The notes beneath the pieces are model-generated. The model was not told the DNA's origin. It saw nothing but the letters and a program-made list of their open reading frames with translations, and made no database searches. A stretch of 64,000 bases of DNA from Coriobacteriia bacterium (lineage in GTDB: Bacteria; Actinomycetota; Coriobacteriia; WRKU01; WQUG01), in contig WRFR01000001.1 of assembly GCA_009778715.1 (NCBI GenBank), positions 3,383 to 67,382 on the forward strand, read 5' to 3'. Made by a program: the position numbers and the translations under genes. Position 1 is the stretch's first letter; each line of letters begins with the position of its first letter. Shown here one piece after another: positions 37,540 through 40,674 of this stretch.

Positions 37540-38673
37540 TTGCCAAAAGGGAGACCTACTCTGGGTAGTTATGAAGTAAAAAACGAGCGACTGCAAGCGT
37601 TGTTGATCGGTATTGATACGGGCGCGAAAAACCTGTGGTCAGCTGAGGATTCGCTCGATGAATTAGCGCGGCTGGCTGAGACTGCAGACCTTAAAGTGGT
37701 CGGCCGCCTCAGCCAGAAGCTCTCTGCCCCGCAAAACGTCACCTACCTGGGCAGCGGGAAACTCGAAGAATCAAAGCGTCTCAGCCAAGAGCTCGGCGCC
37801 GATGTGGTTTTATTCGACGATGAACTCAGTCCGCGCCAGGAATCGACCTTGGCTCGCGAGTTCGGAGATCGCCTTATGGTCGTTGATCGCACAGCTCTTA
37901 TTTTGAGCATTTTCGCTGATCATGCAACGTCACGTGAAGGTAAACTACAGGTAGAGCTTGCCCAGCTGGAGTACGAATTACCTCGTTTGCGCGGCAAGTG
38001 GTCACATCTGACAAAAGAAAAACTTGGGGGCGGAACTGGCGCGCGTTTTGGGTCGGGAGAATCGCAGCTGGAAAGCGACCGGAGAATGATCCGCAAGCGT
38101 ATTGCTATCCTGAAGAAGAAGATCGGGGCCGTTGAGCGCGAGCGCCTGACACAGCGAAGCAGAAGGCAAGCTTCGCGTATCTTTCGGATCGTGTTGGTCG
38201 GATATACTAATGCCGGGAAATCGACGCTTCTCAACCGTTTAAGCTCGGCAGAGGTGTTGGCCTATGACAAGCTGTTTGCCACGCTTGATGCAACGACACG
38301 CCGCATCGGTTTTGAAGGCGGGCGCCAGGCCACCTTGACCGACACGGTCGGATTTATCAACAAGCTTCCACATACCCTGGTTGCCTCGTTTAAGTCGACG
38401 CTTGATGAGGTTCGCGAGGCCGATCTTCTGCTCCATGTTGTCGATGCGGCCTCGCCGGTGTCGCGAGCGCAAATCGCCTCAGTGCAGGAAGTGCTTCTTG
38501 AGCTCGGTGCAGAAAAGAAACCTCAGTTGCTGGTGTTTAATAAGAGCGATGAGCTTGACCGGGATGGGCGCACGGCCCTGCTGTCACGCTGGCAGGGGAG
38601 CGTGGCAGTTTCTGCGTTGACAGGCGGTGGCATCAATGAGCTACGCCGCCGCTTGGAAGTATTAAGCTCTTAG
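37540..38673 (+). CDS. hflX: GTPase HflX
   Basis: …VGYTNAGKSTLLN…DTVGFI…NKSD… The N-domain aligns with E. coli HflX. The start codon is uncertain: the listed start 37540 is TTG, with no in-frame ATG nearby. Confidence 0.8.
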   Translation: MPKGRPTLGSYEVKNERLQALLIGIDTGAKNLWSAEDSLDELARLAETADLKVVGRLSQKLSAPQNVTYLGSGKLEESKRLSQELGADVVLFDDELSPRQESTLAREFGDRLMVVDRTALILSIFADHATSREGKLQVELAQLEYELPRLRGKWSHLTKEKLGGGTGARFGSGESQLESDRRMIRKRIAILKKKIGAVERERLTQRSRRQASRIFRIVLVGYTNAGKSTLLNRLSSAEVLAYDKLFATLDATTRRIGFEGGRQATLTDTVGFINKLPHTLVASFKSTLDEVREADLLLHVVDAASPVSRAQIASVQEVLLELGAEKKPQLLVFNKSDELDRDGRTALLSRWQGSVAVSALTGGGINELRRRLEVLSS

Positions 38674-39314
38674 CGGAATATCCGCAGAACGCCAATGACC
38701 TCGCCGGCAAGTTCGACAGCGCGCGAGTAGATGGGCTCATATCCCTCGTTTGCTGGTTGCAGGCGGATACGGTCCTGTTCCAGATAATAATATTTCACGG
38801 TAGCTTCATCATCGATGATTGCAACGACCATGTCTCCTGGTTGGGCGGTTTTCTGCGCGCGCACGATCACCAGATCCCCATCAAGAACACCGGCATCGAT
38901 CATCGAATCTCCATGAACACGCAACAGGAAACTCCCGTCAGCTCCTCCTTTGATCAGAGAAGCAGGGAGGGGGAGCGTCTCTTCGCGGTTTTCTTCGGCC
39001 AGGATAGGCGTGCCAGCAGCCACGCGCCCGATCAGGGGCAGATCAATGATCTCACCACGATCGTAAGACGTATCCGAAGGTGACGCTTCCTCACGCAGGA
39101 GAGAGAAGACCCGTGACTTGCCGTTGTCGCGTTGAAGGAAGCCCTTCTCGATCAGTTTGTTGATGTGGGTCTGGATCGTACCGGTCGAGCTGAGGCCAAC
39201 GCCCTTGCCAATCTCGCGCACGCTGGGGAATATGCCCTCTTTTTGGTAATAGCTCACGATGAAATCATAGATCATCTTTTGTTTGGGAGTGAGGTCAGTA
39301 TAGTCAACTGTCAT
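38670..39314 (-). CDS. lexA: SOS repressor LexA
   Basis: MTVDYTDLTPKQKMIYDFI…SVREIGKGVGLSSTGTIQTHINKLIEKGFLQRD plus the S24 peptidase domain (…AAGTPILAEEN…VHGDSMIDAG…). SD AAGGAG 7 nt upstream. Its stop overlaps the hflX stop tail-to-tail. Confidence 0.9.
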   Translation of the reverse strand: MTVDYTDLTPKQKMIYDFIVSYYQKEGIFPSVREIGKGVGLSSTGTIQTHINKLIEKGFLQRDNGKSRVFSLLREEASPSDTSYDRGEIIDLPLIGRVAAGTPILAEENREETLPLPASLIKGGADGSFLLRVHGDSMIDAGVLDGDLVIVRAQKTAQPGDMVVAIIDDEATVKYYYLEQDRIRLQPANEGYEPIYSRAVELAGEVIGVLRIFR

Positions 39315-39397
39315 GATAGAACTCCTTAGGATTCGGGTTGCTGATACCAGTATAAAACATCTGTCCGAAAAAAACAAACAAATGTACGAAATAACAC

Positions 39398-39446
39398 TTG
39401 ACAGCGAACGTTTGTACGCGATATTATAAATACGAACACATGTACG
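39398..39446 (+). promoter_or_regulatory. LexA-repressible promoter: TTGACA-17-ATATTA with two CGAAC-N4-GTACG SOS-box-like motifs
   Basis: TTGACA at 39398-39403. CGAACGTTTGTACG at 39405-39418 lies inside the spacer. ATATTA at 39421-39426. CGAACACATGTACG at 39433-39446 lies just downstream. All in the lexA-divergent intergenic region. Confidence 0.6.
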
Positions 39447-39510
39447 GTTGTCTTGTCAGCCCTGGCACTCATACTGGTAGCATACCAGCCAACGAGAAAA
39501 GGAGTTACCC

Positions 39511-39624
39511 ATGTCACGCATTATCGCCGGAGTAGCCGATACCTTCTACGAGCGTCCTCTCTATGCTTTCTCAGGCATTATAGCTTGTGCAGTAGTGATA
39601 GCGCTTCTACTTATGCCCCTCTGA
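39511..39624 (+). CDS. Small hydrophobic peptide (37 aa), candidate SOS-induced membrane peptide
   Basis: atgtcacgcattatcgcc… translates to MSRIIAGVADTFYERPLYAFSGIIACAVVIALLLMPL. SD AAAGGAGttacccATG. Immediately downstream of the LexA-box promoter. Below the ORF-track size cut-off. Confidence 0.4.
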   Translation: MSRIIAGVADTFYERPLYAFSGIIACAVVIALLLMPL

Positions 39625-39747
39625 TCTGGAACGAACACGCTGAGATAATTAGATGCTGACAAATTCCAGTAAATTTCTGGTTGACTTGATAATTCATACC
39701 ATTTATAGTAGGTTACATCGTTAGAACCACTATATATTGGGGGCTGT

Positions 39748-40191
39748 ATGAATTGTCCAGCCTGTGGATTCGCTGAGAGCAAAGTTATCGATTCGCGAAC
39801 CTCGGATTCTCAAGATGCTATCAGAAGGCGGCGTGAATGCCTTGAATGCGGCACACGATTCACTACCTACGAACGAATAGAAGAGCGCCCTCTTTTAGTA
39901 GTAAAACGCGACGGCTCTTCTGAGGCATTCGACTACAATAAACTGCGTCGCGGCATCATGACTGCCGTGGTCAAACGCCCGATCGGCGCTGACGCAATCG
40001 ACGCGCTCATCAATGACATTGTTACCAATCTTCAAAACTCCATGAAGTATGAGGTGAGCTCGAATGTGCTGGGTGACATGGTGCTCAGACGCCTGAAAGA
40101 ACTTGACGGGGTTGCCTATATCCGTTTCGCCTCAGTCTATAAGGATTTTCAGAACCTTGATGAGTTTACGCGCGAACTGGGGGAACTCTAA
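39748..40191 (+). CDS. nrdR: Transcriptional repressor NrdR
   Basis: MNCPACGFAESKVIDSRTSDSQDAIRRRRECLECGTRFTTYERIEE (zinc ribbon) plus an ATP-cone. Promoter TTGACT-17-TATAGT upstream. Confidence 0.9.
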   Translation: MNCPACGFAESKVIDSRTSDSQDAIRRRRECLECGTRFTTYERIEERPLLVVKRDGSSEAFDYNKLRRGIMTAVVKRPIGADAIDALINDIVTNLQNSMKYEVSSNVLGDMVLRRLKELDGVAYIRFASVYKDFQNLDEFTRELGEL

Positions 40192-40674
40192 ATGAGCAAC
40201 GGGCGTGATCTTGACGTTTCGGCGCACACCAGCGAACCTTTAGTGCTTCAGGTACGTCGATGCTGCACCAACGCCCAGGTCCCCGTTTTCGCCCATACCG
40301 GTGATGCCGGCCTGGATCTTTGTGCGGCTGAGGCTTGTGTCCTGCAACCTTTCGAACGCAAGCTTATCCCCACCGGTATCCAGGTTGCCCTGCCGGCTGG
40401 CTATGCTGGTTTTGTTATGCCGCGTAGTGGCAATGCGCTTAAACTTGGCTTATCTTTTCCCAACACACCAGGGCTGATCGATAGTGGGTATCGTGGTGAA
40501 CTCCAGGTGATCGCTATCAATCTTGACCCTGATACACCGCTTGCTTTCGAAGTCGGAGACCGTATCGCTCAGTTGGTCATACTTCCCGTACCCGCTCTCA
40601 CGGTTTGTGAGGTTGACGATCTTGACACGACCGAGCGGGGGGGATCCGGGTTCGGCAGTACGGGAGTAAAGTAA
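40192..40674 (+). CDS. dut: dUTP diphosphatase
   Basis: …TGDAGLDLCA…RSGNALK…GLIDSGYRGEL… dUTPase motifs. Confidence 0.85.
   Translation: MSNGRDLDVSAHTSEPLVLQVRRCCTNAQVPVFAHTGDAGLDLCAAEACVLQPFERKLIPTGIQVALPAGYAGFVMPRSGNALKLGLSFPNTPGLIDSGYRGELQVIAINLDPDTPLAFEVGDRIAQLVILPVPALTVCEVDDLDTTERGGSGFGSTGVK

Follow-up and report, generated by a model that had tools for sequence, protein, structure and literature searches.

A 37-residue membrane peptide encoded opposite lexA in termite-gut Coriobacteriia: a narrow family and candidate SOS checkpoint effector

Introduction

What is encoded opposite lexA in an uncultured Coriobacteriia bacterium of the termite gut, and does it take part in the SOS response? 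The question arises from a 64,000-nucleotide (nt) stretch of Coriobacteriia bacterium DNA (assembly GCA_009778715.1, contig WRFR01000001.1, positions 3,383 to 67,382 of the forward strand), hereafter called the window, in which an initial annotation had pointed to a 37-residue hydrophobic peptide gene, divergent from lexA and preceded by LexA-type boxes, and had proposed an SOS-induced, toxin-like product. The place is suggestive, since a location beside lexA is characteristic of YneA, ChiZ (Rv2719c), DivS and SosA, SOS inhibitors of cell division that have one membrane helix in common but hardly any sequence (PMC6851548). Conservation among such inhibitors is poor, and they are found taxon by taxon, each stalling the divisome differently. 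The analysis presented here indicates that the short open reading frame (ORF) is almost certainly a gene, that its promoter is very probably controlled by LexA, and that its product may be a miniature cell-division checkpoint peptide.

Evidence for a coding gene

The gene and its translation signal are as follows.

39511-39624, + strand: peptide gene, 37 residues, MSRIIAGVADTFYERPLYAFSGIIACAVVIALLLMPL (from the ORF list and from conservation in ten versions)
39498-39504, + strand: Shine-Dalgarno (SD) sequence AAAGGAG, 6 nt before the ATG (read from the sequence)

Relatives of the peptide are few and come from metagenomes of the termite gut and related sources. A LexA-based scan, covering one genome per species, gave two close relatives with LexA 91% and 85% identical to that of the window, the next best being at 51%; both are termite-gut metagenome-assembled genomes (MAGs), one of them labelled Coriobacteriia, and each has a 37-codon ORF. 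Scanning metagenomes with the peptide as the query added five further loci, all from termite-gut-style metagenomes. A HMMER search of 1.84 billion cluster representatives returned two related clusters, both of 37 residues, with 78% and 62% identity; a third match, to a repeat protein, was discarded as spurious. The 62% member (L088) shows the order aminotransferase, hflX, lexA, peptide, with a LexA that is 71% identical, and in the 78% member nrdR lies 90 nt downstream of the peptide gene. This brings the total to ten distinct versions, all of exactly 37 residues, from lineages with LexA 71-97% identical, and the divergent lexA-peptide arrangement holds in all nine related loci. With two 50%-identity clusters among the 1.84 billion representatives, the peptide is a new and very narrow family. 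A 558-residue protein (P0012) found in its 90%-identity cluster resembles, by eye, a thiamine diphosphate-dependent enzyme and appears unrelated; its presence there is taken as a clustering artefact.

That the ORF is a genuine protein-coding gene under purifying selection can hardly be doubted, because its variation follows the codon pattern in this frame only. Over eight closely related versions, the variable columns are distributed as 12/3/30 by codon position, and the proportions of synonymous (pS) and nonsynonymous (pN) differences, summed over pairs, are 0.59 and 0.10 in frame, giving a pN/pS of 0.17, versus 1.7 and 5.5 in the other frames. At a pS of 0.59, synonymous differences are almost saturated, and no added constraint on the ORF is, therefore, apparent. 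Seventeen residues are invariant in all ten versions (M1, A6, G7, V8, A9, Y13, E14, R15, P16, L17, F20, I24, V28, A31, L32, M35 and P36), and the SD is kept as GAAAGGA(G) or GAGGAGG in all relatives.

The ORF thus stands as first proposed, at the same position and conserved beside lexA in ten versions, and so do its SD and ATG, although the spacing between them is 6 nt, not the 7 nt first given. It had also been expected that standard annotation would miss a gene of this size. In fact, the exact window peptide and its relatives are called in public predicted-protein sets (JGI/IMG, ENA and NCBI), but they carry neither a name nor a family there.

LexA control of the peptide promoter

The region between lexA and the peptide gene contains the following elements. 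Scores in bits come from a weight matrix for which these same sites, with their orthologues, were the input, and are, therefore, circular for the three highest-scoring sites; shuffled sequences give about 10 matches at a 9-bit threshold.

39398-39427, + strand: promoter P1 of the peptide gene (consensus scan, 11/12 with the TATTAT reading)
39405-39418: LexA box 1, CGAACGTTTGTACG, filling the P1 spacer (exact CGAAC-N4-GTWCG; 19.9 bits)
39433-39446: LexA box 2, CGAACACATGTACG, at the expected P1 start site, about +1 (exact CGAAC-N4-GTWCG; 23.0 bits)
38670-39314, - strand: lexA coding sequence, 214 residues (Pfam LexA_DNA_bind 2.8e-17, Peptidase_S24 1.2e-31)
39322-39327, - strand: lexA ribosome-binding site AAGGAG, 8 nt upstream of the ATG (read from the sequence)
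39349-39377, - strand: putative lexA promoter with a 17-nt spacer (read from the sequence)
39354-39367: LexA-like box -1, AAAACATCTGTCCG, in the lexA promoter spacer (9.4 bits, weak)
39375-39388: LexA-like box 0, CAAACAAATGTACG, over the lexA -35 (one mismatch to CGAAC-N4-GTWCG; 22.6 bits)

P1, a strong promoter by sequence, combines a -35 hexamer TTGACA (39398-39403) with a -10 that can be read in two registers, either ATATTA (39421-39426, 17-nt spacer), as in the initial annotation, or TATTAT (39422-39427, 18-nt spacer), which is the reading that scores 11/12. The two palindromes that had been described in the spacer and just downstream of it were found at these places, so that, at the sequence level, LexA operators overlap the peptide gene's own promoter, box 2 beginning 6 nt past the -10. 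All these signals are strongly conserved. The heptamer CTTGACA is identical in all of eight loci, and P1 is detected by the scan in three relatives (L081, L084 and L087) and can be seen in two more (L088 and L089). Box 1 orthologues follow the pattern CG[AGT]AC-N3-TGT[AG]CG, and the 16-nt block TACGAACANNTGTRCG at box 2 has a mean pairwise identity of 0.91 over eight loci, to be compared with 1.00 for the -35 and 0.44 for the neighbouring spacer. The distant member L088 still shares the -35, box 1, -10, box 2 and SD with the window, and P1, both boxes and the ribosome-binding site are conserved across all ten lineages.

By count alone, the pair of boxes is not unusual: GAAC-N4-GTAC occurs twice in the window against 0.92 expected, and 22 of 100 shuffles reach two. 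Its weight lies in placement and conservation. The pair is significant because the two boxes stand 28 nt apart within one promoter, because no comparable matrix score occurs elsewhere in the window (20-23 bits at three positions of the intergenic region, at most 11.4 bits elsewhere), and because both are kept in nine related loci. The search for further CGAAC-N4-GT(A/T)CG-type sites that had been suggested gave none above chance in the rest of the window, and no second SOS gene that could validate the box variant (recA, uvrA or similar) was found among the window ORFs scanned. Overall, the arrangement makes it very probable that P1 is under LexA control.

These boxes might have served lexA alone, a possibility that had been raised against the peptide from the start. 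The true lexA start is the ATG at 39314, where homology with the relatives begins, although the mechanical ORF list extends the gene to a TTG at 39377. Upstream of it, a -10 TATACT (39349-39354, - strand; CAGTATA on the + strand) is invariant in eight aligned loci and also present in L088 and L089, while the -35 TTGTTT (39372-39377) is weak, with three of six matches, and the promoter is not listed by the consensus scan. Box 0 is near-invariant across all related loci; box -1, weak in the window, has perfect orthologues in L083 (GAACACTTGTTC) and L089 (GAACACTTGTTT). Their mutual complementarity accounts for the terminator-like hairpin listed by the scan on the - strand. The lexA promoter and its two sites stand 50-90 nt away from boxes 1 and 2. 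The intergenic region thus reads as two back-to-back promoters with two LexA-like operators each, and since lexA has a separate -10 and two separate sites of its own, boxes 1 and 2 appear positioned to block the peptide promoter, not that of lexA.

One lineage departs from this layout. In the P0001 lineage (L089-L092), an insertion about 130-300 nt upstream of the peptide ATG, containing the direct repeat cttgctttgggcggcaatcaagcgg, moves the lexA start about 130 nt farther away from its promoter.

The lexA-nrdR slot in other Actinobacteria

Twelve other loci with lexA facing nrdR were found, in Eggerthella, an Actinomycetota MAG, Actinomyces, Propionibacteriaceae and Bifidobacterium (one Bifidobacterium-type contig among them is mislabelled Parabacteroides). 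All 12 have a lexA-nrdR gap of 550-1440 nt with one to three GAAC-N4-GTNC boxes, followed in 11 of them by a gene for a single-pass membrane protein; in the remaining locus (L030), the ORF is masked with N and unreadable. The window boxes match the type CGAAC-N4-GTTCG of Gram-positive bacteria and actinobacteria, which also occurs upstream of lexA in the Eggerthella, Bifidobacterium, Actinomyces and Propionibacteriaceae loci.

The proteins held in the slot are diverse. Eight carry a C-terminal LysM by sequence motif (the Bifidobacterium-type L065, L067, L071, L076, L077, L079 and L080, and L012), which Pfam confirmed in the three scanned (L065, L067 and L012, 1.6e-8 to 3.6e-9). In Propionibacteriaceae (L053 and L061), the slot protein, about 90 residues long (MTAILVERIAD...), has its helix at the C-terminus, gives no Pfam match and lacks LysM, in which it resembles DivS. 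Eggerthella (L004, 1495-2052; P0004-P0009) has an unnamed protein of about 103 residues behind three LexA boxes, with no Pfam domain; represented by six clusters in 5.8 billion proteins, it constitutes another candidate family of SOS effectors. A survey of the first divergent ORF at 61 lexA loci found helix-plus-LysM genes in Microbacteriaceae and at one Clostridia locus, this crude survey being informative only for Actinobacteria and that single locus of Clostridia; its results for the high-GC Myxococcota and Chloroflexi were noisy.

The same arrangement is known from the literature. In Mycobacterium tuberculosis, Rv2719c-nrdR-Rv2717c is a LexA-controlled operon (PMC4181829), and of the four SOS boxes in the lexA/Rv2719c intergenic region, three belong to Rv2719c and one to lexA (PMC3381160). 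The gene order in the window, miaB-miaA-dapF-(aminotransferase)-hflX-lexA, fits this neighbourhood. Because the 12 actinobacterial loci and the literature show the same lexA-X-nrdR arrangement, the 37-residue gene is the occupant of the chiZ/divS slot in this lineage. This position, which the initial annotation did not take up, is the strongest clue to its role.

Layout of the peptide

The hydrophobic segment spans residues 19 to 37, approximately, with Kyte-Doolittle values of up to 2.7 and no charged or strongly polar residue; from about residue 16 to residue 37 the values are 2.2-2.7, again without a charged residue. Its hydrophobic moment (muH 0.13-0.15) indicates no polar or charged face, while residues 3-15 are moderately amphipathic (0.47). 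An AlphaFold2 (AF2) model from the single sequence gives one continuous helix over residues 2-34, with a predicted local distance difference test (pLDDT) score of 82, and adds little; together with hydropathy, it supports the single transmembrane helix predicted at the outset. The peptide ends with the helix, at most two or three residues lying beyond it, so that an extracellular C-terminal domain is absent, and Pfam gives no match.

Conservation is not highest in the membrane. Mean column entropy is 0.38 over residues 1-20 versus 0.72 over residues 21-37, which makes the non-membrane N-terminus the best conserved part, with the motif IAGVADxFYERPLYxF. As R15 and K/T11 adjoin the helix, these first 19 residues or so are probably cytoplasmic (N-in), with the helix acting as a C-terminal anchor. 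When the peptide was compared with Pfam, NCBIfam, PADLOC, PHROGs and PDB, the outcome was either no match at all or weak similarity limited to the membrane helix.

Comparison with known systems

ChiZ (Rv2719c) and the actinobacterial LysM proteins of the slot resemble the window system in position, in the miaB/miaA/dapF/hflX/lexA neighbourhood and in having a single membrane helix. The likeness extends to regulation: lexA and its divergent neighbour each have a share of the SOS boxes, with four sites in both cases (PMC3381160), a second promoter of the RecA-NDp type is possible, and co-transcription with nrdR (PMC4181829) is predicted here from the sequence. These proteins differ in being about 100-190 residues long with an extracellular LysM, whereas the window peptide has 37 residues, no LysM and no sequence similarity to them.

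YneA of Bacillus and Listeria is likewise divergent from lexA, LexA-repressed and single-pass (PMC6851548). Its transmembrane helix binds TM7 of FtsW, and AlphaFold3 (AF3) models suggest that several SOS inhibitors target FtsW (PMC13396833). In YneA, the helix is N-terminal, the C-terminus extracellular and LysM needed (PMC13396833), whereas the helix of the window peptide is C-terminal, and there is no homology. SosA of Staphylococcus and DivS of Corynebacterium glutamicum are lexA-adjacent, SOS-induced, small, single-pass proteins without LysM, each limited to a narrow taxon and lacking homologues elsewhere (PMC6851548); rapid turnover at the lexA slot marks the window family as well. SosA nevertheless has 77 residues, with an extracellular C-terminal part that is functionally important and serves as a handle for CtpA proteolysis (PMC6851548).

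The closest system in design is SidA of Caulobacter crescentus, an SOS-induced peptide of 29 residues, nearly all of it one membrane helix, which blocks division via FtsW/FtsI/FtsN (PMC4211646). The window peptide falls within the size range of such peptides (under 40 residues, one transmembrane helix), with its SOS control read from the boxes. SidA belongs to a Gram-negative alphaproteobacterium and is not linked to lexA, and the window peptide has an additional conserved N-terminal motif; the likeness noted here is one of design. TisB/IstR-1 and DinQ/AgrB of Escherichia coli also involve LexA-controlled single-helix peptides, of 27-29 residues (PMC3567139), but there the antitoxin is an antisense RNA, the mRNA is structured and processed, and the helix is charged or amphipathic; the window locus shows none of these features. 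Within Coriobacteriia, the Eggerthella protein shares the slot, the LexA boxes and a tail-anchored layout, its sole helix lying at the very C-terminal end. It has, however, three times the length, and no homology to it can be detected (hhalign probability 1%).

Regulatory logic and position are textbook for Actinobacteria, and what is unusual is the minimal size and the lack of an extracellular domain.

Leader and a candidate second promoter

Three further elements lie in the leader of the peptide gene.

39454-39475, + strand: two-part element TGTCAG-N10-CATACT, between box 2 and the SD
39446-39470, + strand: possible 7-bp stem, 39446-39452 with 39464-39470, with an 11-nt loop beginning with the conserved TTGTCAG
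39474-39488, + strand: small hairpin CTGGTA-GCA-TACCAG (minimum-free-energy fold; only partly conserved in the relatives)

The two halves of the TGTCAG-N10-CATACT element have mean pairwise identities of 0.96 and 0.92, versus 0.44 for the spacer, whose length of 10 nt does not vary among the eight closest loci; L088 has a degenerate copy of the element, and L089-L092 lack it. Its geometry equals that of the actinobacterial damage promoter, RecA-independent and recognised by PafBC, which consists of a -26 element and a -10. Two forms of it are published: tGTCgg(N10)tA(N3)T, in which GTC is strictly conserved (PMC8635444), and tTGTCRgtg-8nt-TannnT (PMC5656591). The GTC and the spacing are kept in the eight loci, but the -10 starts with C where the published forms have T. 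In M. tuberculosis, most of the induction of Rv2719c is attributed to the RecA_NDp promoter (PMC3381160). Closer, near-perfect copies of the PafBC type occur in the same lexA-nrdR slot of other loci, beside LexA boxes and ahead of genes for single-pass membrane proteins (L030, L053, L061 and L012): TGTCGG-N10-TAGCGT in Actinomyces, TGTCAC-N10-TACGGT in L012, and TGTCAGTG-N8-TAGCGT and TGTCGGTG-N8-TAGCGT in Propionibacteriaceae. These parallels hint at a candidate second, LexA-independent promoter of the PafBC/RecA-NDp type and, with it, a possible dual control as for Rv2719c and recA in M. tuberculosis. In the window, the PafBC-type pattern gives 4 matches against 1.44 expected, and no ORF of at least 150 residues has the W[YF]L motif of a WYL regulator.

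One of these matches, at 1327-1348, is a perfect TGTCGG-N10-TATAAT inside an ORF (701-1783) with an AbiEi_4 antitoxin-like domain; given the expectation of 1.44, it may be there by chance.

An RNA hairpin may be an alternative or additional reading of TGTCAG, as the 7-bp stem overlaps it and covaries. In this stem, 76% of cells pair versus 65% in shuffles (1 of 500 reaching this value) and 27-51% in slid controls, and the covariation score is 0.377 versus 0.214 (again 1 of 500), which, from only nine sequences, constitutes moderate evidence. Apart from this one short stem, folding found no conserved leader structure and no hidden SD. The fold of 39434-39540 is no more structured than shuffles (z = 0.36) and leaves the SD free of pairing; folding the consensus gives an energy of -2.5 kcal/mol. 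Rfam gave, over the intergenic region, only a sub-threshold STAXI match (39591-39719; 17.3 bits against a gathering threshold of 40.5, E = 0.17), which was taken as chance.

Possible function and alternatives

The reading that we favour, to which we would give about an even chance, is that of a miniature SOS checkpoint peptide of cell division, SidA-like in its mode of action. In the chain that we infer, from LexA binding and induction by damage to topology, target and effect on division, LexA would, in undamaged cells, occupy both the spacer site (box 1) and the site at the transcription start (box 2), blocking RNA polymerase at P1. DNA damage would lead to RecA-stimulated self-cleavage of LexA and free P1, and the unstructured leader, with its strong SD, would allow immediate translation. 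The peptide would then enter the membrane and delay septation until repair is done, most likely by binding a late divisome component (FtsW/FtsI) in the plane of the membrane, as SidA and the YneA helix do. Transcripts from P1 would run on into nrdR-dut, as in the Rv2719c-nrdR operon of M. tuberculosis.

Several points weigh against this proposal. Homology of the peptide to an inhibitor, or to any family at all, could not be detected (Pfam, NCBIfam, PADLOC, PHROGs and PDB, and hhalign at 1% against the Eggerthella protein), and the right half-sites of the boxes are GTAC or GTGC instead of GTTC, a variant that no second SOS gene in the window confirms. The characterised Gram-positive inhibitors are described with an extracellular C-terminal part (PMC6851548), of which the window peptide has essentially none, and the YneA helix alone localises but does not inhibit, LysM being required (PMC13396833). 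Conservation is strongest in the non-membrane N-terminus, which would not be required of a pure in-membrane FtsW binder. Lacking an extracellular part, the peptide, if it is a division inhibitor, must act differently, either within the membrane in the manner of SidA or from the cytoplasmic side, for instance by tethering a cytoplasmic partner. A bolder version, tentative and rather unlikely in its entirety, would see in it the smallest known lexA-linked SOS checkpoint effector of a Gram-positive-type bacterium, unlike any characterised one in its mode of action. It would act in the membrane or at its cytoplasmic face via IAGVADxFYERPLYxF, a motif that could, for example, recruit a cytoplasmic protein of the divisome or of DNA repair to the membrane, and it would be under dual LexA and PafBC/WYL-type control.

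The conserved N-terminal motif also lends itself to another role, that of a damage-induced small membrane protein which would modulate or adapt an enzyme, a transporter or a protease, tether a cytoplasmic partner, or serve the expression of nrdR-dut. Lying outside the helix and varying less than it (entropy 0.38 vs 0.72), the motif fits a specific protein-protein contact, and both the lack of an extracellular domain and the likely co-transcription with nrdR-dut are in keeping with such a role. Nevertheless, the base rate given by the slot favours division control (PMC6851548), nrdR keeps a conserved promoter of its own and does not depend on the peptide gene, and amino acid conservation over all 37 codons is unlike that of a mere leader or spacer ORF; we regard this role as a minority possibility that deserves consideration. 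The toxin proposed initially, of the TisB/DinQ/HokE type, would depolarise or permeabilise the membrane and lower ATP, leading to dormancy or persistence. A very small hydrophobic peptide behind LexA-type boxes suits this idea, for which DinQ, a toxic single-transmembrane peptide of the E. coli SOS regulon under LexA control, offers a precedent (PMC3567139). The known type I SOS toxins, however, carry antisense RNAs and inert primary transcripts (for DinQ, agrA/agrB, with only the processed +44 mRNA being translated; PMC3567139), whereas the ORF and its surroundings gave no sign of a promoter on the - strand, either in the window or in L081, L084 and L087, in scans limited to the sigma-70-type consensus. 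The flank 3' of the ORF is unconserved and as short as 4 nt, which leaves no conserved flank that could encode a small RNA; synonymous sites are unconstrained (pS 0.59), and the leader is unstructured with an open SD (z = 0.36). The helix, moreover, is without a charged or polar face, the best conserved part of the peptide lies outside the membrane, and the gene sits in a slot of division inhibitors. LexA-type control and a membrane helix thus remain from the initial proposal, while the toxin analogy is not favoured and appears improbable. As for the idea that the ORF arose by chance among the lexA-nrdR promoters, or that what is conserved is an RNA element and not a protein, the shortness of the ORF and the partly covarying leader stem could be cited in its support, but the 12/3/30 pattern, a pN/pS of 0.17 in this frame only, the invariant 37-codon length and the SD kept in ten lineages, with nothing beyond the sub-threshold STAXI match in Rfam, would make it a great surprise.

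Should the checkpoint reading be right, its interest would lie in what has been left out: the peptide keeps the position and regulatory logic of ChiZ and YneA but has no extracellular domain, on which both of those depend. If it blocks division, it would define the minimal element sufficient for a Gram-positive-type checkpoint and offer a synthesisable probe of FtsW/FtsI or of a cytoplasmic partner. Dual control, if true, would extend damage promoters of the sigma-adaptation type to Coriobacteriia. The lexA-X-nrdR slot can, in addition, be used to find unannotated checkpoint genes in metagenomes. In practice, the narrowness of the family and the uncultured termite-gut Coriobacteriia host set limits.

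Downstream genes nrdR and dut

The peptide gene is followed by nrdR, with a promoter of its own, and by dut.

39681-39709, + strand: nrdR promoter TTGACT-17-TATAGT (scan 10/12; conserved in relatives)
39748-40191, + strand: nrdR, 147 residues (Pfam Zn_ribbon_NrdR and ATP-cone)
40192-40674, + strand: dut (dUTPase), immediately after nrdR (Pfam dUTPase 1.9e-30)

In every locus that extends far enough, nrdR follows the peptide gene. The scan found no terminator-like site between the peptide stop codon and the nrdR promoter in the window, L081, L084 and L087, and the distance from the stop codon to the nrdR -35 is as little as 4 nt in L083, the flank 3' of the ORF not being conserved. Because of this missing terminator and the 4-nt gap, transcription from P1 probably continues into nrdR-dut.

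Between the nrdR -10 and the start codon (39699-39745), two conserved AT-rich near-palindromes, ACCATTTATAGTAGGT and CCACTATATATTGGGG, can be seen. They resemble the NrdR-box consensus, acaCwAtATaTwGtgt, and would suggest autorepression of nrdR.

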